NCBI GenBank assembly: GCA_028688415.1
Contig: JAQTYF010000001.1
Location: 577,895 to 641,894 of the forward strand
Direction: 5' to 3'
DNA length: 64,000 nt
Source: Candidatus Moraniibacteriota bacterium
Lineage (GTDB): Bacteria; Patescibacteriota; Minisyncoccia; Moranbacterales; UBA1568
A program made the translations under genes and the position numbers. Under the pieces are notes generated by a model. It saw nothing but the letters and a program-made list of their open reading frames with translations. It made no database searches and was not told the origin of the DNA. Positions within the stretch are counted from its first letter, which is position 1, and each line of letters starts with the position of its first letter. Positions 1 to 57,647 of this stretch are shown here, piece after piece.

Positions 1-118
1 GGGCATCAGTGATGAAAACATCTTCTTTTTCCGCTGTTTCGATAGCCCTGTCAAAATACGCCCCAATTTTCGGATCAAGACGTTCTTTGAAAACCTTTAA
101 TTCATTCTCTATCTGCAT
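1..118 (-). CDS. Hypothetical protein; N-terminal 39 codons only, gene continues past the window start
   Basis: Reverse-complement ATG at 116-118 preceded by AAAGGGGA (SD-like); translation MQIENELKVFKERLDPKIGAYFDRAIETAEKEDVFITDA runs open to position 1. Not in the ORF track because it is truncated. Confidence 0.4.
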   Translation of the reverse strand, partial: MQIENELKVFKERLDPKIGAYFDRAIETAEKEDVFITDA

Positions 119-237
119 ATATTCCCCTTTTAGAGATAGTCAAACACGCTTGAAAGTATATCAAGAAAGAAAACCAAAAACAAGGGAAAAGTCTTCCACT
201 CTCATTTGAAGTACAATCCTCTTTTCTTTTTCAATAA

Positions 238-392
238 CCAAAAGAATTTTTCAGCATCCTTTCCACACTGACTGAGCAAGAGCTCTCAGATCGAAAAAAG
301 AAGTTATGATTGTGTAGATTGGGGACTACTTTTTTCGTAACACTGAAAGCTCTTGTGAGAGGTGGAACGATGATGAAAAATTGGCTTTTGGT
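238..392. repeat. Copy A of a ~155-bp imperfect palindromic (MITE/ERIC-like) intergenic element
   Basis: About 90 % identical to 41314..41470. Outer arms aaaagaatttttca(g)catcctttccac / gtggaacgatgatgaaaaattggctttt are reverse complements; internal arms gagcaagagctctcag / ctga(a)agctcttgtgagag; central hairpin cgaaaaaagaagt...actacttttttcg. Confidence 0.6.
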
Positions 393-457
393 TGTTGGAT
401 AGAAATATCCCTTCTATATGAGAGGTTACTTGTGAGAAAAAGATTTGAAAAAAGATA

Positions 458-1171
458 CTAAAATTGCAAAAAGTCTTTATATTTCTTGTAGAGCTCATGC
501 GTCGCTCGTACATCGCGAGCGTTATATCGTGCGATGTCTGATGATCTTCCATTTTCAAACAGTGTTTTCACATCATCACCATCGACTCCCTGTATTTTCG
601 GACTCTCGATGTCGAAAGCTCGACACCAGAGATGGAGGCTCCCCTTCTTTCTCATCGCGCCGTAAAATGTCAATTGATCAAAGAGGTCTATATGATGTGC
701 TCCTCTCGCCTGAGAATTCAGATACCGATTCGAGAGCAGATTTTTTGTCGGACGAATACCGTGTATAGCAGAACGCACCATGAGGAACGGCACATCGAAC
801 TGTCGACCATTGAATGTGACGAACGTATCGTACTTTCCAGCGATCTCCCAGAATCTCTGGAGCATTTCTTTTTCTGTCATCACGGTACACTTGCACTCTC
901 CTTCTTCGAAACTTTCTTCTACCTTCACTGATGAAGATTCAAAATATACCGCACTTTTTTCACGCTCACTATCATAAATACCGATAGCAACTATACGCCC
1001 TGTCAAAGGTGAGAATCCCATACCATTTTTCAGATCCGTCAATGCTCCGGCATATTCAGTCTCATTTTCTGATTCTCGTTTGATCCAACGAGTGAGTGCT
1101 TCCTGACTCGTCTCATCGAGCGTGTCAAAATCTTCTCCAACGGTTTCAATATCGAAAATGAGGGTGTGCAT
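458..1171 (-). CDS. Predicted 3'-5' exonuclease, RNase H-like/PolB-exonuclease-like (DnaQ superfamily)
   Basis: N-terminal IFDIETVG (Exo I-like DxE), FNGRQFDVPF (Exo II-like), YNARDV (Exo III-like Y..D); 237 aa. Confidence 0.6.
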   Translation of the reverse strand: MHTLIFDIETVGEDFDTLDETSQEALTRWIKRESENETEYAGALTDLKNGMGFSPLTGRIVAIGIYDSEREKSAVYFESSSVKVEESFEEGECKCTVMTEKEMLQRFWEIAGKYDTFVTFNGRQFDVPFLMVRSAIHGIRPTKNLLSNRYLNSQARGAHHIDLFDQLTFYGAMRKKGSLHLWCRAFDIESPKIQGVDGDDVKTLFENGRSSDIARYNARDVRATHELYKKYKDFLQF

Positions 1172-10847: not shown

Positions 10848-11006
10848 TTATCGTTTCTTTGTTACTTTCTTAGCGGCCTTCTTGACTACTTTTTTTACAG
10901 CTTTTTTTGTAACTTTCTTAGCTACTTTTTTTACAGCTTTTTTTGTAACTTTCTTAGCTACTTTTTTTACAGCTTTTTTTACTGTTTTCTTTTTTGCTAC
11001 TGCCAT
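10848..11006 (-). CDS. Small lysine-rich repeat protein (52 aa), histone H1-like/basic nucleoid-protein-like composition
   Basis: Manual translation MAVAKKKTVKKAVKKVAKKVTKKAVKKVAKKVTKKAVKKVVKKAAKKVTKKR with strong SD aaggaggtga 5 nt upstream. The track ORF 10810..11025(+) is the opposite strand of the same repeats. Confidence 0.6.
   Translation of the reverse strand: MAVAKKKTVKKAVKKVAKKVTKKAVKKVAKKVTKKAVKKVVKKAAKKVTKKR
10861..10980. repeat. About 3.3 tandem copies of a 36-bp unit (gtaactttcttagctactttttttacagcttttttt) inside the lysine-rich CDS
   Basis: Two perfect units at 10909..10944 and 10945..10980, plus a diverged unit with a 12-nt insertion. Units keep the frame and encode KKAVKKVAKKVT. 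Not CRISPR-like. Confidence 0.6.
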
Positions 11007-29678: not shown

Positions 29679-31571
29679 ATGGACTTTTTGAAAAAACACG
29701 CATATCTCATTGTTGCAGGGATTCTCGTATCACATTTTGTTCTTGGTCTCGTGATTTCCAGTCAAGAATCGATGATCTATGATGAACGAGCGCATATCCC
29801 CGCTGCCTATAGCTATGTCCGTTACGGCGATATGCGTCTCAATCCCGAACACCCCCCTCTCCTCAAAGACCTCGCTGGGCTCCCACTTCTCGCATTCAAT
29901 CTTTCTTTCCCTCTCGCTTCTCCCGAATGGCAGACAGGCACCAATGAACAGTGGACTGTCGGTGATATGTTCGTCAACTGTTCCAATCCTGAAATGAGTT
30001 GCAACAATGCTGATACGATTCTTTTCTGGTCTCGTCTCCCTATTACGCTCGTCGCTGTATTACTCGGCATCGCGATCTTTCTTTGGACACGTGAACTTTC
30101 AGGAACGCTCGCAGGCCTCTTTGCAGTTACTCTCTACGCTTTTGACCCAAACATCATTGCTCACAACCATTATGTTACGACCGATATCGGTATCGCCACA
30201 TTCCTTTTCCTGGCATTCTATTTCTTTGTTCGTTTCTTGAAAAATCCTTCGTACACGAATATCATCACAGCCGGACTTTTCCTCGGATTCGCTGAAGTGA
30301 CCAAATTTTCTGCCGTACTTCTCTTTCCTCTTTTTGGACTCTTTGTCATTCTCTACGCTCTCACCAAAGAGAAGAGACCGACAGACAGACGAACCGTATC
30401 TCTCTTTAAAATGCAAACCTTATTCGAATATGTTCTCAAATTTGGAGGCAGTGTTGTTGTTTGTTTTATTCTTATCTGGTCCTTGTATGCCTGGAATACG
30501 ATCAATATGCCGGGTGAAAAAATCGTTGCCTCAGCTGATTTCTATCTCTCTCAACAAAATGCACCGGCGATATTCATCCACGACCTCATTGTAAATACGA
30601 GTGAGAATGCATTTCTCAAGCCACTCAGTCAATACATTCTCGGTGCTGGTATGATCTTTGCTCGTGTCGCCAGTGGTAATCCTCATTATTTCCTCGGCGA
30701 AGTGACTATGGATCCCTCACGCTGGTATTTTCCTGTCGTTTTCATCCTGAAAGAAACCCTGCCCTTTCTCATGCTTCTTTCCTTCGCTCTCATCTATACG
30801 CTCTCGCGTATTGGAAAAGTGCTCTTGCGAACAAAAAAACAAACTCTTTTTTCTTTCATATCTCAGTCTATCCAACAGAAGCCAGCACAATACCTCATTT
30901 TCGGATTTATTCTCCTCTATAGTGTGGTCAGTATCAATGGAAAATTGAATATCGGTTTCCGTCATCTCTTCCCTCTTCTTCCGTTCCTTTATATGCTTAT
31001 TGCAAAGACGGTATTTGATTTCTGGAGACATCTCAAGAAAAATGAATCGACTCAGAAACTCTTCTCAATTCTCTTTTCTGGTATCATCTTTTCTATTATT
31101 TCTATACCCATTCTCGCTTATCCGAACTATCTCTCGTATTTCAATATCGCTGTTGGTGGTCATAGCAATGGCTACAAATATGTGACTGATTCCAACTACG
31201 ATTGGGGACAAGATTTGAAAAGAGTACAACGATTCATCGATATTCACAATCGATGCAAAACAGGACAAGTGGACCTCTGGGAATCCAAAGAATGTATAGT
31301 CACGGTCGATTATCCTTCTATCAATAAGATCCGTATAGATTATTTTGGTGGGTCAAATCCTGGAACGATGTTTGATGATGTGTTCATCCCCTGGTGGGGT
31401 GAAAGGGAACCAGAAGCTGGCTGGTATGCCATCTCCTCATTCTTCTACCAAGAGAGTTTGTACAAGAAAAAACCCATCGGAACAAGAGATTATTCTTGGC
31501 TCGAAGATTATACTCCAGTGACTCGAGTCGGTGATTCTTTCTTCATCTATTATATTCCCGAAAAGAGATAA
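29679..31571 (+). CDS. GT-C fold glycosyltransferase, PMT_2-like
   Basis: YDERAHIPAAYSY...NPEHPPLLKDLAGLPL is the PMT_2 (bacterial GT39-like) signature; multi-TM; C-terminal soluble domain. Confidence 0.7.
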   Translation: MDFLKKHAYLIVAGILVSHFVLGLVISSQESMIYDERAHIPAAYSYVRYGDMRLNPEHPPLLKDLAGLPLLAFNLSFPLASPEWQTGTNEQWTVGDMFVNCSNPEMSCNNADTILFWSRLPITLVAVLLGIAIFLWTRELSGTLAGLFAVTLYAFDPNIIAHNHYVTTDIGIATFLFLAFYFFVRFLKNPSYTNIITAGLFLGFAEVTKFSAVLLFPLFGLFVILYALTKEKRPTDRRTVSLFKMQTLFEYVLKFGGSVVVCFILIWSLYAWNTINMPGEKIVASADFYLSQQNAPAIFIHDLIVNTSENAFLKPLSQYILGAGMIFARVASGNPHYFLGEVTMDPSRWYFPVVFILKETLPFLMLLSFALIYTLSRIGKVLLRTKKQTLFSFISQSIQQKPAQYLIFGFILLYSVVSINGKLNIGFRHLFPLLPFLYMLIAKTVFDFWRHLKKNESTQKLFSILFSGIIFSIISIPILAYPNYLSYFNIAVGGHSNGYKYVTDSNYDWGQDLKRVQRFIDIHNRCKTGQVDLWESKECIVTVDYPSINKIRIDYFGGSNPGTMFDDVFIPWWGEREPEAGWYAISSFFYQESLYKKKPIGTRDYSWLEDYTPVTRVGDSFFIYYIPEKR

Positions 31572-31611
31572 GGGACGAGAGATGAGTGATAATGGATAAA
31601 TGATAAAAAAG

Positions 31612-31655
31612 AAAAGAAAAAGATTCCGGATACTCTATCGGAATCTTTTTCGTTT
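31612..31655. terminator. Bidirectional terminator between GT-C #2 and the FtsQ-like gene
   Basis: aaaaagattccggatactctatcggaatctttttcgttt: stem gattccg/cggaatc. Confidence 0.6.
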
Positions 31656-31724
31656 CAGATCTTTTTACTTCCTTTTTATCTCTTATCGCTCATCCATTAT
31701 CATGTATCTTTCACCGTCCCCCAC

Positions 31725-36076: not shown

Positions 36077-36122
36077 AAAGTTTCAGTGGGTAGAAATTCT
36101 TATCAGAAATATTTTCTTTTTT

Positions 36123-36265
36123 CATTCTTCGTATTTCTCGAACATTTCTGACTCGTTCTGTCGAACAGGGAGCTGTCCTGTCGAGACCATCCGTCACGCT
36201 CTCCGCCAGCTGGCGGATGTTACCGACTCACTTATCACAAATGTGACCGATAAATACGAAGAATG
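36123..36265 (-). other. Candidate structured RNA/leader in the mreB-GT4 intergenic region
   Basis: 14-bp closing inverted repeat cattcttcgtattt (36123..36136) / aaatacgaagaatg (36252..36265) encloses a perfect palindrome ccgccagctggcgg (36203..36216) and further imperfect helices. Local GC is higher than the surroundings. Confidence 0.3.
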
Positions 36266-36309
36266 AAAAAAGGAAATATTCCTGATATCACACTTCTTTA
36301 TGACTAACA

Positions 36310-40934: not shown

Positions 40935-41183
40935 CTACTGCATTTTGAAAAGGGATTTCAGATATGCTTCGCTGATTTTTTTCTTGCCATCCCATTTGCA
41001 AGATATATCATCCTTGAGAAGCTCTACTCCGAGCATCGCCACCGCTTCGCGAATAGCGGTGATCTGCGTGATGACAGCGAGACAATCTTTTTCTTCTTCC
41101 ACCATACGACGTACGCCTTTCAATTGTCCTTCGATGCGCGCAATACGCGAGAGCACCGGCGATGTTTTCTTCGGAATCGTCAT
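40935..41183 (-). CDS. CsoR/RcnR/FrmR-family (DUF156) transcriptional repressor, two-Cys, no-His (CstR-like) variant
   Basis: LSRIARIEGQLKGVRRMVEEEKDCLAVITQITAIREAVAML fits the DUF156 helix bundle. Cys34 and Cys62 present, but residue 58 is Asp rather than the His of Cu-CsoR. Confidence 0.75.
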   Translation of the reverse strand: MTIPKKTSPVLSRIARIEGQLKGVRRMVEEEKDCLAVITQITAIREAVAMLGVELLKDDISCKWDGKKKISEAYLKSLFKMQ

Positions 41184-41202
41184 AATGATTGTTTCAGAAA
41201 AA

Positions 41203-41247
41203 TATACCCTACAGGGGTATATTATATCTTTTACGAAAATGTGTCAA
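41203..41247 (-). promoter_or_regulatory. CsoR-type operator TATACCCTACAGGGGTATA (41203..41221) overlapping a -35/-10 promoter of the csoR-SDR-trxB operon
   Basis: Palindrome 20 nt upstream of the csoR start, near-identical to the B. subtilis CsoR operator TACCCTACGGGGGTA. Minus-strand TATAAT at 41221..41226 and TTGACA at 41242..41247 with a 15-nt spacer. Confidence 0.6.
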
Positions 41248-41313
41248 CCCTGCGCATTCAATTCCATTCTAAAGCGCGACATTCAGACAGAATGAATGTT
41301 TTTTTTCAACGAA

Positions 41314-41470
41314 CAAAAGAATTTTTCATCATCCTTTCCACTCTGACTGAGCAAGAGCTCTCAGATCGAAAAAAGAAGCTAAGAGTGTGTTGATTGGAGG
41401 CTTCTTTTTTCGTTTTACTGAGAGCTCTTGTGAGAGGTGGAACGATGATGAAAAATTGGCTTTTGGTTGT
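41314..41470. repeat. Copy B of the ~155-bp palindromic MITE/ERIC-like element
   Basis: About 90 % identical to 238..392. Central hairpin cgaaaaaagaagc / gcttcttttttcg is perfect here. Lies between the csoR promoter and the stop of the giant surface-protein gene. Confidence 0.6.
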
Positions 41471-41509
41471 TGAAAAGAGAAAGCTTCATTTCAAGAGAGA
41501 CTGTAGTCC

Positions 41510-44500
41510 TTAAAACTTCGCCCATCCAAACATATCATTGAAGTTCCCGATAATCATCTGTACAACATTTTCAGTTTGTTGTGGAGTAATAATCATTTTT
41601 TCTCTTGAGATGCTTTCATTACCTGCTTTATCGATAGACTTGGCCTTGAGAAAATAGACAGAACCAATCTTGAATGATGTGAGCACTATCACGTGTGAAG
41701 TCGATGGATCGGTCGGCATATCAATCGTCTTTTCTTCTCCATTCGATCCTTCTTTGTAAGCAATGGAAGTGGTGGCTGGTTCATCAGTGTACCACGAAAC
41801 AATAGCCTGGACTTTGCCATCTTGAGCGAGAGCCATATCAGTTTTGAGTTGGTCAATTTCTGGAGCAGTGGTATCTTGACTCGTTGTGAAGTTTTTGGCA
41901 TCCTGAGTCACCTTGTTCCCTGCTTCATCTGTCGCAACGATCTTGGCATTGTACACCGACCCTGGTTTCAGTCCCTTGAGGACGACAGTGTGCGAGAGGG
42001 AAAGATCAGGCTTACCCTGAGACCCGGTATCAGAACTCTCCTTGGTATTCGTATAGGAGACGGATGCATCGGTCGGAACGCTCGTATTGAAACTCACTTC
42101 GACTTCCGTATCAGAAAGTACTTTGGTCGTGACATTACTAATTCCCGGAAGAGAACGGGGCGAGAATGTGTAATCAGAAGAAGCGAAAAGGTTGTTTAAT
42201 TTATCCTTACCTTTGACACGAAAATGATAAAGTTGATTGCTCTCGAGCTTGTTGACAGTCATTGTGTGCGTCTTCGTTTGGGTATTACTTTCTTGTTTGT
42301 CTCCGTACGTTTCTGAGAGACCGTATTCCACAATAGAAGACATAAGTGTACTCGTTTTCCAAGCGAGAACTGCTTCGCCGATTTTGTTCGAAACGATATT
42401 GATAGAAGAAATGGTCGAAGGAGAAGTAGTAGTGAAAGAGGATTCGGAGGAAGTAGTGAGATTGCCTCTCGCATCGGAAGAAAGGACGACAAAATAATAT
42501 TTGGTACTCGGGATGAGATTCTTGAGAAAAATCGTATGTTCGACAGCGTACGTCTCGATAGCTGAATTGATCACATCTTCTCCGGACATATCTCCATAAT
42601 CCGTCGTGATGCCGTACCTCACGTACCCATTACTGACCTCATCCGTACTCCATGTCACCGTTGCATTCTCTCCTGTCACATCTGACACATTCACACTCGA
42701 GATTGTCGGGGATATCAGATCACCCCCTTCGCTTCCGCTGTCTACCTGTATCGGTTTGGTCGTGAAACTCGCTTCATCAGAAACAACCACTGTGTCGAGA
42801 TTATCGATACAGGTTGCCTGGTAATAATAAATCGTCGAAAAGAGAAGTGATGGAAGCGTGATAGAGTGGCGCTTGTTTTCGAGAGTCTCAGTGACTGGAG
42901 TGGCTGCATAATTGCTCGGGGCAGTGCCGTACTCGATCGTACAGAGAGCAGGCTGGTCTGTAACAAGTGAGATGACGGCATTCGTATCAGTGATAAGTAC
43001 CGTATTCATCCCTGTGATACTCGTCAGTGGATCGTGCTGGAAACTCGGATCCGGAAGTGTCTTGAAAGAGTTTTGTGAGGAAAGTGTCGTATTTCCAGAA
43101 AGATCAGCAGAGTAGGCTTTGAAATAATAAGTAGTGTCAGCGACGAGAGAGGGAAGGATAACAAAATGATCCTGTCCATAAGTGACAGTTTCTGTAGTAC
43201 TGGTATACGGTCCTCCTCCAGTAGTAGCATATCGTATCTGACTCGTACTTTGTTCATCGGTGAGCCAAGTGATAGCTACTCGATCATACGTGATGACAGA
43301 AGCTCCGAGAGTGGAAATGACAGGACTTGTATTGTCCGTGGTAGTAGTGAATTGATAGAAAACGCCTCCATTGGTATCGAGAGCCATATTACTATCCGTA
43401 TCTTCTGATTTCACAAAGAAATAGTAAACCGTACCAGGTTGCAATCCTGATATTGTCTGAATATGACTCGTCGTGAGTGGAGTGGTACCGACTTCGGTAG
43501 GAGCGACGAGAGCAGTTTCTGATTTTTCTGTTGAGTAAGAAATATAAGTAGAGGCAGGAATATCCGTGTTCCAACCTATTGTTGCCTGAGTATTCGCGGC
43601 GCTCGAGAGAGCAACATTGGAAATAGCTGGACCTGGATTGGTAGTGAACGTATATCCTGTTCCCCCGTTATTATCAGTACCTTCGTTGCCTGCTGGATCA
43701 GAAGATTTGACCTGATAGAAATACGTTGTAGCAGGAGTGAGACCGGTAAGTACGACGCTATGGATACCACTTCCTCCAGTGTTATCCGCATAGTTGAACA
43801 CGCCGATTTCATCAGTGAAAAATCCACTGTTAACGGAAAAACCGACCGTCGAAGTAGAGAGTTCGTTGGTATCCCAAGTGATAGTGACTTGAGTTGTCGA
43901 AACTGCAGAATGAATAACATTGGAAATAGCAGGCGGAGTGGTCTCTGATCCCCCTCCTCCTTCTCCAGAATCTTGAGTACCATTTGGCTTTCCTTGAAGA
44001 GTCGACGACATCCAAGAAACGTTTCCGACGTTGTCTGTCATCTTGACCTTGTAGTAACGAATCGTGTCAAAAGTGACAGTCTCATCAATATAGTAATTAG
44101 TACTTCTGGAATTGATAGTAGCGACGAGAGAAAAATTGACATTGTCTCCTGACGCATAAAGTTTGTAATTGGCGAATCCATAAAAAGGTTCGGCAACCGT
44201 TCTCCAAGAGATGAAGAGTTTCCAATCATTATTCAGAGCATTCGACACATCTTGAATAATCATAAGAGTCGGAGTTTCTGTCGAAGTGACAGAGGAAATG
44301 ATTGTTTCATTGTTGTAGACATCTCGATACTGAACATAGACGATGTCTGGATTGGTAGCGAGTGTGAGGAGCTTCGTTCCATTATAGGCTTCGTAGGTGG
44401 ATCCAGAGAGATCAGAATTCAATCCAACTTTCATTTCAATCGTGGAATCATCAGTCGCAGAGAGAGTGACACTCGCTGGAGTGAGCGATGCATCAACCAA

Positions 44501-46927
44501 AACAGGATAGGATCCGAGCGTTGGCGCCTTGGAATCAAATGTGATGGTATCAGTCGCTGTGGCAGTATTGTTGGCAGCTTCATTGTCATTCACGGTCACT
44601 TTCACTGAAAGAGTCGTGCTATAGGTATTGGTAATATCAGTCTTCGCGTCCCAGATAGCTTCGTACTGTGTGTAGTTTGCAATATCGACACTCTTGTTAG
44701 CTGTGGCATTGATAGAAAGATTGGCACTATTGATGGTAACGAAACCAGACCCATTGTCATAGGCAAAGGAAGGAGTGATGTATCCAGGAGTGTTCGTTCC
44801 ATCGGTAGTATCGAAATCTTTCACTCGATAGATGATACGGATTTTTCCCCAGTCAGAATCGAGATTATCAGAAATCTGTGAGACTGCGAGACCATTAGTA
44901 TTGTAAGCAGTGTCAAATTCTGGAGCAGCATTCACCACATATTGTGATGTCACACTTGTGAGGATCGGGGTGATAGCACCGCCTGAGGTAAGAGTCACTC
45001 GGTATTGGAAATATTGATCATCCGATCCTGTCATGAGTGGATGCGTCGGAGAGAGTGTCACCCCATTGTCACTCTCGGTGAAATATGTAGATCCTGAACA
45101 ATCAGTGTATCCACACCAGGAAGCAGATGTGAGACCTCCGAGAGTAGACGCAGAACGCACTTGAAGTTTCACAGTATCACTGGCACTCGTATTTGTCGCT
45201 GTCCAACTCATTTTGGAGAGAAGATTGGCATTCGAGGAAGAGTCGTACGGAGAAGAAAGAATCTCTCCTGATGTGTACTGGGAGTAGTCGATGGTAACAG
45301 AGTCAAGAGTGGGTGAAACAGACGGATCAGTTGTCGAAAAATTCGCACGATACTGCATGTATTGATTGCCTGATAATGATGAGATGTCTCCACCATTCGC
45401 GACACCAGTTGTCCAGGAAGTCCACGAACCATCTGGCGTCGCAGTATTACCCGCCCGGACGTCCATCGTTATGGTTTGTCCGTTGAGTGTCGTAGCATAA
45501 CCAAAAGTGGAAAAGGAGGCAGACGCTCCGAGGTTAATAACGGCAGAAGTGAAAGTACCAGAAGCTACTTCGGGAAAACGATTATATTGAGATACAGTAA
45601 CATTACCATAATTAGTCACGTAGACCGATGTTCCATCAGGAGAAATCGTTATACCGATAGGACTTGCTCCTGCCGATATTGTTTCGGGGGTAAGTGGAGT
45701 AAGAATTCCAGTACTGGTATTTCTGTTGTATTGAGATACATTTGAGCTTGATAAATTGGCAGTGTAAGCCGATGCTCCAGACGAAGAGATAACAATACCA
45801 TACGGACTATTAGATGTATTTATAGTATCTACATATGTAAGCAAACCAGTACCTATATTTCTGTTATATTGAAAAATGCGTTGATAATCATAATTAGTTA
45901 CATAGACCGATGTTCCATCAGGAGAAATTGTAATACTATAGGAACCATTCATTGTGGATATCGTTGCAGGGGTAAGTTGAGTAAGGAGGCCAGTGCTGGT
46001 ATTTCTGCTGTATTGAGATACTTCATTATAATTATTTACATAAACTGACATCCCATCGGAAGAAATTATAACATTATTCGGTTGGATTCCTGTAGATATC
46101 GTTGCGGGGGTAAGCGGAGTGAGGAGGCCAGTGCTGGTATTTCTACTGTATTGAGATAATGTATTACTACCATAATTAGCCACATAGACTGATGTTCCAT
46201 CAGAAGAAATTGTGATACCACGAGGACTCGTTTCTGCCGATATTGTTGCGGGGGTAAGCGGAGTGAGGAGGCCAGTGCTGGTATTTCTGCTGTATTGAGA
46301 TACGGTAGTGTTACCAGAATTAGTTACATAAACTGATATTCCATCGGGAGAAATCGTAATACCGATAGGATTTGCTCCTGCCGATATTGTTGCGGGGGTA
46401 AGCGGAGTGAGGAGGCCAGTGCTGGTATTTCTGCTGTATTGAGATAATGTATTACTACCATAATTAGCCACATAGACTGATGTTCCATCAGAAGAAATTG
46501 TGATATCACGAGGCTGTGTTCCTGTAGGTCTCGTTGCGGGACTGAGTGCTGTAAGCAATCCACTCTTTACAAATTCTACTCTCGCTCCACTGCCGCTTCC
46601 CGTCACCTGTGTTATATTATTCGTTCCATTCCCAAATCCCCCACCTGTTGCCAGTCCTTGTGGTATCGTCGTCCCATCATCGGTGAAAGTATAACCGGTA
46701 GCAGGGAGTTTCACATCAGTCCCAACCGTCAGTCCACTCTGACTCGTATACTCATTCCAGTTCGTCTGATTGCCAGGATGCACGGCAGTATTCACCGTCA
46801 CTCCACCACTCCAGCTATTCTGGGTAAATGTATATGTCGCTCCCTGTGAACCGAGTGGCAAGAGATAGGTACCACTGACGATCACAATGACGAGCAAGGC
46901 CGATACCTGTGCTTTCCAGCTGCCCAT
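41510..46927 (-). CDS. Giant surface protein (~1,806 aa): signal/TM anchor, ~8-9 YVTN-type beta-propeller repeats, multiple fibronectin type III-like domains
   Basis: Start taken at MGSWKAQVSALLVIVIVSGTYLL; the preceding 124 track codons are AT-rich, K/R-rich leader. Repeats SQYSRNTSTGLLTPLTPATISAGANPIGITISPDGTSVYVTN. FN3-like AISNVIHSAVSTTQVTITWDTNELSTSTV and similar. Confidence 0.75.
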   Translation of the reverse strand: MGSWKAQVSALLVIVIVSGTYLLPLGSQGATYTFTQNSWSGGVTVNTAVHPGNQTNWNEYTSQSGLTVGTDVKLPATGYTFTDDGTTIPQGLATGGGFGNGTNNITQVTGSGSGARVEFVKSGLLTALSPATRPTGTQPRDITISSDGTSVYVANYGSNTLSQYSRNTSTGLLTPLTPATISAGANPIGITISPDGISVYVTNSGNTTVSQYSRNTSTGLLTPLTPATISAETSPRGITISSDGTSVYVANYGSNTLSQYSRNTSTGLLTPLTPATISTGIQPNNVIISSDGMSVYVNNYNEVSQYSRNTSTGLLTQLTPATISTMNGSYSITISPDGTSVYVTNYDYQRIFQYNRNIGTGLLTYVDTINTSNSPYGIVISSSGASAYTANLSSSNVSQYNRNTSTGILTPLTPETISAGASPIGITISPDGTSVYVTNYGNVTVSQYNRFPEVASGTFTSAVINLGASASFSTFGYATTLNGQTITMDVRAGNTATPDGSWTSWTTGVANGGDISSLSGNQYMQYRANFSTTDPSVSPTLDSVTIDYSQYTSGEILSSPYDSSSNANLLSKMSWTATNTSASDTVKLQVRSASTLGGLTSASWCGYTDCSGSTYFTESDNGVTLSPTHPLMTGSDDQYFQYRVTLTSGGAITPILTSVTSQYVVNAAPEFDTAYNTNGLAVSQISDNLDSDWGKIRIIYRVKDFDTTDGTNTPGYITPSFAYDNGSGFVTINSANLSINATANKSVDIANYTQYEAIWDAKTDITNTYSTTLSVKVTVNDNEAANNTATATDTITFDSKAPTLGSYPVLVDASLTPASVTLSATDDSTIEMKVGLNSDLSGSTYEAYNGTKLLTLATNPDIVYVQYRDVYNNETIISSVTSTETPTLMIIQDVSNALNNDWKLFISWRTVAEPFYGFANYKLYASGDNVNFSLVATINSRSTNYYIDETVTFDTIRYYKVKMTDNVGNVSWMSSTLQGKPNGTQDSGEGGGGSETTPPAISNVIHSAVSTTQVTITWDTNELSTSTVGFSVNSGFFTDEIGVFNYADNTGGSGIHSVVLTGLTPATTYFYQVKSSDPAGNEGTDNNGGTGYTFTTNPGPAISNVALSSAANTQATIGWNTDIPASTYISYSTEKSETALVAPTEVGTTPLTTSHIQTISGLQPGTVYYFFVKSEDTDSNMALDTNGGVFYQFTTTTDNTSPVISTLGASVITYDRVAITWLTDEQSTSQIRYATTGGGPYTSTTETVTYGQDHFVILPSLVADTTYYFKAYSADLSGNTTLSSQNSFKTLPDPSFQHDPLTSITGMNTVLITDTNAVISLVTDQPALCTIEYGTAPSNYAATPVTETLENKRHSITLPSLLFSTIYYYQATCIDNLDTVVVSDEASFTTKPIQVDSGSEGGDLISPTISSVNVSDVTGENATVTWSTDEVSNGYVRYGITTDYGDMSGEDVINSAIETYAVEHTIFLKNLIPSTKYYFVVLSSDARGNLTTSSESSFTTTSPSTISSINIVSNKIGEAVLAWKTSTLMSSIVEYGLSETYGDKQESNTQTKTHTMTVNKLESNQLYHFRVKGKDKLNNLFASSDYTFSPRSLPGISNVTTKVLSDTEVEVSFNTSVPTDASVSYTNTKESSDTGSQGKPDLSLSHTVVLKGLKPGSVYNAKIVATDEAGNKVTQDAKNFTTSQDTTAPEIDQLKTDMALAQDGKVQAIVSWYTDEPATTSIAYKEGSNGEEKTIDMPTDPSTSHVIVLTSFKIGSVYFLKAKSIDKAGNESISREKMIITPQQTENVVQMIIGNFNDMFGWAKF
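45500..46540. repeat. Near-identical ~140-bp tandem DNA repeats encoding the YVTN blades inside the giant gene
   Basis: cgttgcgggggtaagcggagtgaggaggccagtgctggtatttct(g/a)ctgtattgagata recurs near 46103, 46240 and 46383; a further ~60-bp exact duplicate lies at 46158..46217 and 46447..46505. Confidence 0.6.
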
Positions 46928-47409
46928 CAATACTTGTCCTACTTCTTTAATTGATTTGGAAGCAAGGCTTCCAAAAGATGGAAACAAGCTTCCAAATCTC
47001 CTCTGTTTCTTATGCGATATGACATCAGAAAGTACTCTCTTCTTTTTCTTGGAGAGGAGAGCGACAAAAAAACCAGTTGTTTTTTTTATTGTTTCTAGGA
47101 GTACTACGAAGAAATTTTTCTTCCATTCCGAAAAATGACGTCTGAAGAAAGTGCTTCTTTTTCTCTGCATTCTCTGCGGTGCAACACTATCAAAACACCC
47201 TTTCTTTCTCTGAATGAGGGTTTGATATGGTTTTCTTTTTTCTTCTACAAAAGACACTCTTCGCATAGTGTTTCTTTTTGTTTCTTCGCGCTCAAACATG
47301 GGTGTTCAAAAAAGAAACATCCATTGAAAGTATACCATAGAAATCTTCTTTTTGAAGAGAAAAAAGCCGTCTCTCGAAAAGAGATAACGGCTTATAGGAA
47401 AAATGAGGG

Positions 47410-56333: not shown

Positions 56334-57647
56334 CTATTGAAAGAGAAGTTTATAATTTTTTGACCAATAGACGATACCTTCGTAGTAATTTTTATTGAAA
56401 GTACCAAGATAATTGATAGAAGCGCTCTTGATGACTGACTCTTTACTCGAGGTAGCGCCAGCGACACGAAGCTTGAGAGCCATCGCCATCACCCCATCCG
56501 TGATATTCCATGGATCAGGATTCTTATGTCCTGTATTGGCTGTAATGCGAGATTTATACCCCATCCATACATCAGACATAAACTGAGGTATACCCATCGC
56601 CCCGCCCTGCCCGATATACGCACTCGGAGAAGGAGAACAAGAGACTTTCTTGTCCTTACTGTACCCGAGAACATCGACAATATCATAGAAGAGAGCCTTT
56701 CGTTTATACAAAAGATCAATCGATTTTTGCCAATTCTTATTTTTCTTCAAGAGGGATTTGTATCGTGCAACAGAGACACTTTCTACTTGTTTATAGGTAC
56801 ACTGTCCCGTATTGACACCGATGTTCGTTTCTTTTTTCAAGAAACCATACAGCACTCCTACAGGCACTCCTGTTTTTTTGCTGGCAAACTCTACTGCTTC
56901 ACGGATATCTTTGGCATCATATGATTTCCCCGACAAAATATCCAAATCGCCCTGCAATTGATCCAGTTCTTTCTTGAGACGACTGATAATTGTTTGTTGA
57001 TCTTCTATATCACCCTGCGTGTCTACCTTATCCAATACCAAATTTTTCTTCTGCTGATTCTTGAGAGCGAGCAGTCGTTCCTGATCCTTTTTCATATCCT
57101 CCAATGTTTCTTTTTCACCAGTCACTTTTTCTTTCATGGTGTTGATCTCACCAATCACTCCCTGTATCTTTTCCTGTACCGAAAACAACGTATCATATTC
57201 ATGAAAAAAACGCATATCACTCTTTTCTGCAACAATGATTTCAGAAAAAGGGATACTGCTACTTTCATAAAGCTCTCGAAGGAGTCCTTTGAGAACAGAT
57301 TTTTCGAGGGTCAATTGTTGCTCCAGTCCAGCTACTTCTTTTTCTTTTTGTTCGATGGTTTGTGTGGACTCATTGAGAAGCACCTGTGTACGCTGAATCA
57401 CCTGCTGGGTAGAGGTGAGCGATGTATTGATCTGGTTTAAGTTCTTTTCCAACTCACTTTTTTTCTTACTTGCGTCTTTGAGTTTTTTCTCCAGACTATC
57501 GATACGATCATTGATACATCCAGTGTCTGTATCGTCACAATCCGACTGAGCCAAGACAACAGAAGACTCTGTTGGCACAACAAAACACAGCGCAGAGAAC
57601 GCGCCGAAAGAGAACAAAAGAAATAAGATGCGAATTTGTTTGTACAT
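56334..57647 (-). CDS. Secreted coiled-coil protein with C-terminal lytic transglycosylase (MltB/SLT_2-like) domain
   Basis: Start set at the signal peptide MYKQIRILFLLFSFGAFSALC; long coiled coil; C-terminal GQGGAMGIPQFMSDVW matches the MltB GAMG.QFMP.tW motif. Confidence 0.65.
   Translation of the reverse strand: MYKQIRILFLLFSFGAFSALCFVVPTESSVVLAQSDCDDTDTGCINDRIDSLEKKLKDASKKKSELEKNLNQINTSLTSTQQVIQRTQVLLNESTQTIEQKEKEVAGLEQQLTLEKSVLKGLLRELYESSSIPFSEIIVAEKSDMRFFHEYDTLFSVQEKIQGVIGEINTMKEKVTGEKETLEDMKKDQERLLALKNQQKKNLVLDKVDTQGDIEDQQTIISRLKKELDQLQGDLDILSGKSYDAKDIREAVEFASKKTGVPVGVLYGFLKKETNIGVNTGQCTYKQVESVSVARYKSLLKKNKNWQKSIDLLYKRKALFYDIVDVLGYSKDKKVSCSPSPSAYIGQGGAMGIPQFMSDVWMGYKSRITANTGHKNPDPWNITDGVMAMALKLRVAGATSSKESVIKSASINYLGTFNKNYYEGIVYWSKNYKLLFQ

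Follow-up and report, generated by a model that had tools for sequence, protein, structure and literature searches.

A low-copy foldback-type palindromic repeat behind two stop codons of a Candidatus Moranbacteria genome, polymorphic between strains at one site

The window, i.e. the whole stretch of 64,000 nucleotides that was analysed, belongs to the metagenome-assembled genome (~0.94 Mb) of a Candidatus Moranbacteria, a member of the CPR/Patescibacteria, whose genomes are very small and are thought to be poor in repetitive or mobile DNA. Two copies of a palindromic element, A and B, were located in intergenic regions of the window, and the four genes that flank them are all carried by the minus strand. 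The 41 kb between the copies are occupied by housekeeping genes (tRNAs, ribosomal protein S2, EF-Ts, RF1, MreB and EPSP synthase). The genes and repeat units of the two sites are the following:

1..118, minus strand: 5' end of a polyprenyl synthase gene, downstream of site A
191..456, no strand: insertion A, 266 nt composed of the core, the outer arms (hairpin to ~197-427) and a ~30-nt tail
224..403, no strand: core of copy A, an imperfect long hairpin, more degraded than copy B
458..1171, minus strand: gene of an RNase H-like / PolB-type 3'-5' exonuclease, whose stop codon adjoins insertion A
40935..41183, minus strand: CsoR/FrmR-family repressor gene, downstream of copy B
41299..41478, no strand: copy B, the better-preserved palindrome (71 pairs on the plus strand), at the 3' end of the giant-gene insertion
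41510..47299, minus strand: giant surface-type gene (1929 aa) with a lactonase propeller, a purple-acid-phosphatase N domain and fn3

The two copies were delimited by MAFFT, find_repeats, blastn (word size 7) and nhmmer (--max), and the four alignment and repeat methods agree on exactly two copies in the 64-kb window. Copy A (224-403) and copy B (41299-41478) have the same orientation and the same length of 180 nt, and they are separated by 19 mismatches and no gap (89.4% identity, blastn E 1e-65). These data are in agreement with the initial annotation, which had reported two direct copies about 90% identical, each located 3' of a minus-strand gene. The extent of ~155 bp which it had proposed (238-392 and 41314-41470) lies at the right positions but falls somewhat short of the 180 nt that can be aligned. 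Clear homology between the copies is limited to ~225-397 in A and ~41300-41472 in B, giving a shared unit of ~173-175 nt, outside of which the flanks of A and B are unrelated. The repeat is therefore duplicative DNA, and the alternative named in the initial annotation, two copies flanking a segmental duplication, is ruled out by these unrelated flanks. The core of copy A is 54 nt away from the exonuclease stop codon (458-460) and that of copy B 31 nt away from the stop codon of the giant gene (41510-41512), and both copies lie upstream of the start of the next minus-strand gene (118 at site A and 41183 at site B).

Further copies were searched for by blastn and nhmmer, the count which the initial annotation had proposed, and it yielded only the same two: no third copy was found in ~78 kb of the ~0.94-Mb genome (the window, 9.5 kb of contig L012 and 4.7 kb of contig L029), and the loci retrieved from relatives contained no copy at all. 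In the GTDB species representatives, an exact-pattern scan with GGAACGATGATGAAAAATTG returned five loci from Bacteroidota and Bacillota with only 21-25 nt matching; they were rejected as real copies and considered as chance gene-start look-alikes, the similarity being limited to the pattern region. A pattern designed for both outer arms gave 13 loci in JGI metagenomes with scant match outside the pattern, and three exact-pattern scans of IMG/VR viral contigs gave no match. Blastn in distant mode was likewise negative against plasmids, phages and 5,426 complete E. coli genomes. In Rfam, searched with gathering and E-value thresholds, no family was recovered for the element, the only hits being tRNAs and chance miRNA- or snoRNA-like hairpins far below the cut-offs. 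Full-text literature searches returned no publication in which palindromic or MITE-like repeats are described from CPR/Patescibacteria, and none on the source accessions.

The source being metagenome-assembled, and chimeric assembly being able to create palindromes, we considered that the repeat could be an assembly artefact or a chance similarity. The E value of 1e-65 over 180 nt excludes chance, and the same element sequence was found inside a 138-kb contig of a second assembly, GCA_028699965.1. Moreover, in Logan contigs of the same strain from two runs, the correct flanks continue into the element for its outer 36 or 45 nt. These contigs stop exactly at the start of the first 31-mer common to A and B, so that both junctions are independently confirmed and the probability of an artefact is practically negligible. 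Short-read assemblies are interrupted by the element at each of the two sites, which is of practical relevance for the binning and closing of these genomes. In GCA_028699965.1, two contigs (JAQVTP010000004.1 and JAQVTP010000008.1) overlap by ~219 nt at window 56541-56759 and were left unjoined; no copy of the element is present there.

RNA folding of both strands showed that each copy is a single imperfect hairpin across its full length. The plus-strand folds have energies of -70.6 kcal/mol (A) and -85.5 kcal/mol (B) and the minus-strand folds of -61.0 kcal/mol (A) and -74.6 kcal/mol (B). For both copies and both strands the z-scores are comprised between -8.7 and -11.5, with 0/200 shuffled sequences equally stable, and copy B folded as DNA reached -54.3 kcal/mol (z -12.1). 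The long imperfect inverted repeat described beforehand is thus recovered on both strands. The arm sequences quoted with it are true of copy B, but copy A differs from them, with broken pairs: base pairing is disrupted in its outer arm by the variant cagcatcc and in its inner arm by ctgaaagctc. Three parts of the hairpin were distinguished:

292..337, no strand: central hairpin of A, A6-stem-loop-T6 (CGAAAAAAGAAGT...ACTACTTTTTTCG), with a weak stem and a loop of ~20 nt
348..397 (41423-41472 in B), plus strand: invariant block of 50 nt, 100% identical, GAGAGGTGG then ATGATG
41367..41412, no strand: central hairpin of B (CGAAAAAAGAAGC...GCTTCTTTTTTCG), with a perfect 14-bp stem

The layout of the central hairpin of A resembles that of a bidirectional terminator. 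The 19 differences between A and B are not evenly spread over the structure. The loops, which make up ~21% of the positions, are enriched in them (8/19), one stem pair of the central hairpin has been changed on both sides (U-A in A and C-G in B), and 5/19 differences break pairs in copy A only. The copy nearer to the ancestral palindrome is thus B, and A is decaying. The arm opposite the invariant block carries six A/B differences, and the chance of finding all six arm differences on one side is ~0.03. In both copies the plus-strand fold is ~10 kcal/mol more stable than the minus-strand fold because of a larger number of G-U pairs (5-7 against 0-1). As A and B share ancestry, this G-U asymmetry is effectively one observation (p ~0.06). 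Taken with the arm conservation, it hints weakly at the plus strand, antisense to the four flanking genes, the two p values (~0.03-0.06) being non-independent.

The open reading frames of the element were then considered, those of the plus strand being:

370..402, plus strand: tiny ORF of copy A, MMKNWLLVVG*, 10 aa
41445..41513, plus strand: tiny ORF of copy B, MMKNWLLVVEKRKLHFKRDCSP*, 22 aa

The initial annotation had pointed out that a tiny ORF is possible on either strand, and ORFs were indeed found on both, those of the minus strand being MLKNSFGY* and MMKNSFVR*. All ORFs within the element are 8-22 aa long and unconserved between A and B, the two plus-strand frames having their first nine codons alone in common. 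The concatenated six-frame translation of the element had no homologue among 5.8 billion proteins. The element is thus without conserved coding capacity, and the tiny ORF of copy A is probably not a gene. A type I toxin was rejected, since the peptide is unconserved and its hydrophobic stretch is only 5 residues.

A product of the plus strand, either an sRNA or a tiny peptide (MMKNWLLVV...) with its SD and start codon sequestered in the hairpin in the manner of a type I toxin or of a leader peptide, would be compatible with the more stable plus-strand fold of both copies and with the complete conservation of the GAGAGGTGG-N4-ATGATG arm over 50 nt. We regard it as very unlikely. The mirror-image SD and ATG on the other strand follow from the palindrome alone, the ORF changes from 10 to 22 aa between copies, and a hydrophobic stretch of 5 residues is too short for a membrane toxin. 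In addition, no sigma-70-like promoter was found on the plus strand upstream of either copy, though the genome uses TTGACA-17-TAATAT, and the G-U asymmetry counts once only.

The fate of site A in related strains was analysed by comparison with a Logan contig of a sister strain (L013, SRR22315509), which is 98.0% identical to the window over 1,898 nt upstream of the site and 99.3% identical over 3,311 nt downstream. The sole gap in these 5.2 kb corresponds to window 191-456, where the sister strain has 1 nt instead of 266. The insertion begins 1 nt past the exonuclease stop codon, and the ancestral 74-nt spacer before the polyprenyl synthase gene is intact on its far side. In more distant relatives (L031-L036; ~74% nucleotide and ~82% protein identity) the element is absent, and the 68-nt spacer opens with TTTTCYCTTGTTTTTG right after the stop codon, as in the empty allele of the sister strain. 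Since distant relatives share this short empty spacer, the empty state is ancestral and insertion A is derived. At the level of sequence comparison, copy A is a recent insertion that is absent from the sister strain. Another relative (L030, 95% protein identity) has a different insert of ~630 nt at the same position (L030:1296-1940); this cassette contains a TTGACA-type promoter, a 130-aa ORF without Pfam match and an intrinsic terminator, and no copy of the element. Three alleles (empty at L013:1898-1900, the palindrome, and the L030 cassette) therefore occur at one nucleotide after the stop codon (window 457), which designates this position as an insertion hot spot.

The edges of insertion A were compared with the empty allele. 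No target-site duplication was found at A: in the alignment of the filled and empty alleles, 266 nt replace one T of a T-run, the nearest approach at the edges being an imperfect GAAAAG / GAAAAAAG. Copy B likewise shows no direct repeat on its flanks. This negative result is a weak one because the ends of the element are poorly defined: the indel spans 191-456 but the shared core 225-397, which leaves the exact termini uncertain. The extra sequence of insertion A lengthens the hairpin outward; no pairing occurs between the two flanks of B.

At site B, the MurD-like and CsoR-like genes were compared with those of relatives for which the contig includes the upstream gene (L037, L039-L047). In these the two genes are adjacent, with a spacer of ~70-115 nt, which indicates that the giant gene and copy B together form a strain-specific insertion of ~6.2 kb (window ~41260-47409), with copy B at its 3' end. 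The giant gene has its own terminator/promoter region upstream (47300-47409) and contains internal tandem repeats of 144 nt (45555-46562). The CsoR-like gene is preceded on the minus strand by a TTGACA-17-TAATAT promoter (41247-41219) close to the consensus. A palindrome, ATATACCC-N4-GGGTATAT, overlaps this promoter at 41201-41223 and is largely kept in four aligned relatives, L043 having a shortened form (TATACCC...GGGTAT). Owing to this conservation, it is presumably the operator of the repressor.

The location of copy B at the 3' edge of the 6.2-kb insertion, together with the three-allele hot spot of site A, could also be explained by an att-like or attC-like recombination site or scar, which would bound strain-specific insertions without being itself mobile. 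This explanation is given a low probability. The L030 cassette is devoid of the element, the opposite edge of the giant-gene insertion (47300-47409) has neither the element nor half of it, and the gene products checked in the window included no integrase or recombinase. Housekeeping DNA, and not an island, fills the 41 kb from one copy to the other, and the ends of the element do not fit the integron attC core, GTTRRRY. On similar grounds, an attL/attR pair of an integrative island was rejected (housekeeping interior of 41 kb, no integrase among the products checked), as was an integron attC site (no array, unfitting core motifs, no integrase among the products checked). A TR/VR pair of a diversity-generating retroelement (DGR) was rejected too: A is present at 8/19 differing positions in copy A and 4/19 in copy B, so that no adenine bias is seen, both copies are intergenic, and no RT domain is present in the window products checked.

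Each copy is preceded on the minus strand by a stop codon and followed by the next promoter, and should therefore be transcribed in the 3' UTR of the upstream gene, as a hairpin of ~85 bp. Such a hairpin would block 3'-5' exonucleases; it could also partly insulate the downstream promoter or be a substrate of RNase III. From the position of the copies, a role as terminator or as stabiliser is plausible. As a terminator, the element is unconvincing. A consensus terminator scan called no terminator-like site inside either copy, and neither copy combines the G+C-rich stem, short loop and U-tract of an intrinsic terminator: the full hairpin is followed by GAAAAGA on the plus strand and by an A-run on the minus strand, with no U-tract on either. 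A compact canonical terminator is present elsewhere in this genome, after the MurD-like gene (~47340-47375).

Given the above location, the element could instead have been selected as a cis-acting RNA module (a long 3'-UTR hairpin serving as terminator, insulator or mRNA stabiliser), and would owe its duplication, or its arrival together with the giant gene, to its usefulness. This is compatible with the A6-stem-T6 bidirectional-terminator layout of its centre and with the empty allele of site A, in which no terminator separates the exonuclease gene from the polyprenyl synthase gene. Other long hairpins (31577-31712 and 36101-36287) also suggest that such structures past stop codons are common here. 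Nevertheless, a selected module is unlikely: G-C pairs are few in the central stem, whose loop is of ~20 nt, the G-U pairs favour the plus strand, antisense to the flanking genes, and 175 nt far exceed what termination needs. Furthermore, the element is absent at site A from the sister strain and from all relatives examined. Any effect at the RNA level is regarded as a side-effect and not as the reason for the existence of the element.

The properties of the element were compared with those of known bacterial repeats. Bacterial MITEs, such as Correia/NEMIS of Neisseria, RUP of Streptococcus pneumoniae and bcr1 of the Bacillus cereus group, are repeated tens to hundreds of times, with a fixed target-site duplication and with terminal inverted repeats that match a parent IS. 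Like them, the element is small (175-266 nt, against an upper size of about 500 bp) and non-autonomous, with ORFs of 8-22 aa only, it is intergenic, it has inverted-repeat arms (the whole unit being an inverted repeat of uncertain exact termini), and it is polymorphic between strains, an empty site being found in L013 and L031-L036. It could in principle carry outward-facing signals (SD/ATG, hairpins) as they do. Unlike them, it is self-complementary throughout (foldback type) and not at its ends only. Parent-IS ends, a fixed target-site duplication and a high copy number could not be shown for it, two copies being present in ~78 kb of the genome. No transposase, integrase or reverse transcriptase was found among the window gene products scanned against Pfam or provided with a precomputed Pfam annotation. 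The element shows only some of the defining features of MITEs.

ERIC/IRU sequences are imperfect palindromes of ~127 bp known from Enterobacteriaceae and Vibrio. The element resembles them in being an imperfect palindrome over its whole length without coding capacity, in lying just past stop codons in intergenic DNA which, judging by the gene layout, is transcribed, in its presence or absence between close strains, in having no known transposase and in the RNA hairpin expected within the mRNA. It differs from them by its length (~175 nt, 266 nt at site A), the mere two copies shown, its CPR host and the lack of a TA or other target-site duplication. E. coli genomes carry ERIC copies, and as none of the 5,426 genomes searched by blastn matched the element, it does not belong to the ERIC family by sequence, a conclusion drawn from the comparison with these genomes. 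REP/BIME sequences, of 20-40 nt, are clustered, present in hundreds of copies and associated with a RAYT (TnpA-REP) transposase gene. They are likewise intergenic palindromes 3' of genes, and they can stabilise the upstream mRNA; the element is single, ~175 nt long and without a Y1-transposase gene among the window products checked. Like intrinsic bidirectional terminators, it lies between genes and is symmetrical at its centre (A-tract / stem / T-tract), but its stem is AT-rich and weak, its loop is of ~20 nt, and it is tenfold longer than needed. Concerning the MITE/ERIC-like assignment of the initial annotation, its core is retained, namely a palindromic, intergenic, non-coding repeat at two unrelated loci, polymorphic at A, whereas a high copy number in the ~78 kb covered, a target-site duplication, a partner transposase in the window and a similarity to ERIC were not recovered.

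Altogether, the data are best explained (probability of about 0.55) by a palindromic repeat of foldback type and low copy number, a non-coding DNA of the MITE/ERIC/Correia kind that is duplicative and probably mobile. Such an element may have been copied between sites by a transposase acting in trans from elsewhere in the genome. Alternatively, its copying could have proceeded by recombination or template-switch, favoured by the palindromic structure. It seems quite unlikely that the element belongs to an undescribed, CPR-specific class of hairpin DNA that inserts behind stop codons without target-site duplication, possibly by a palindrome-driven and transposase-free route, or that it encodes a hairpin-gated plus-strand antisense sRNA or micropeptide. 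The element is otherwise an ordinary kind of object, in which nothing should surprise a specialist of bacterial repeats. The insertion polymorphism of a foldback element offers a small and concrete view of strain-level variation in an uncultivated symbiont, and the spacers enlarged by hairpins and the three-allele site past a stop codon likewise illustrate strain variation in a reduced genome.

At least three unrelated long hairpins (191-456, 36101-36287 and 31577-31712) fill spacers that are much shorter in relatives, the equivalence of the gene pair around 31577-31712 being assumed by gene order. The hairpin at 36101-36287 has arms of 40 nt, 93% complementary, and a branched core of 107 nt that is more G+C-rich; its minus strand folds with an energy of -89.4 kcal/mol (z -9.8). 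The 233 nt that separate the MreB stop codon from the following glycosyltransferase gene are taken up by this hairpin; as the distance between the two genes is 10 nt in L043 and L044, it is probably an insertion as well. It had no match in Rfam, and a homology with the element was rejected, as none appeared in the alignment. The centre of this hairpin coincides with the end of a Logan contig from the same strain. The one at 31577-31712 is AT-rich and 136 nt long, and lies in a 153-nt spacer towards which a PMT-family gene and a 322-aa ORF without Pfam match converge, their ends being at 31571 and 31725, respectively; in L043, the spacer from a POTRA-domain gene to the PMT gene is 63 nt, the two pairs being taken as equivalent from gene order.

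Two other regions of the window were recorded. At 10854-11003, a repeat with a period of 12 nt comprises 8 overlapping copies of a 66-nt unit, and on the minus strand it is rich in codons that would specify Lys, Ala and Val. Between 15648 and 27845, large ORFs (514-988 aa) without Pfam match accompany an 830-aa protein with a weak TraG-D_C (coupling-protein) match, and this region may be a secretion or conjugation-like cluster.
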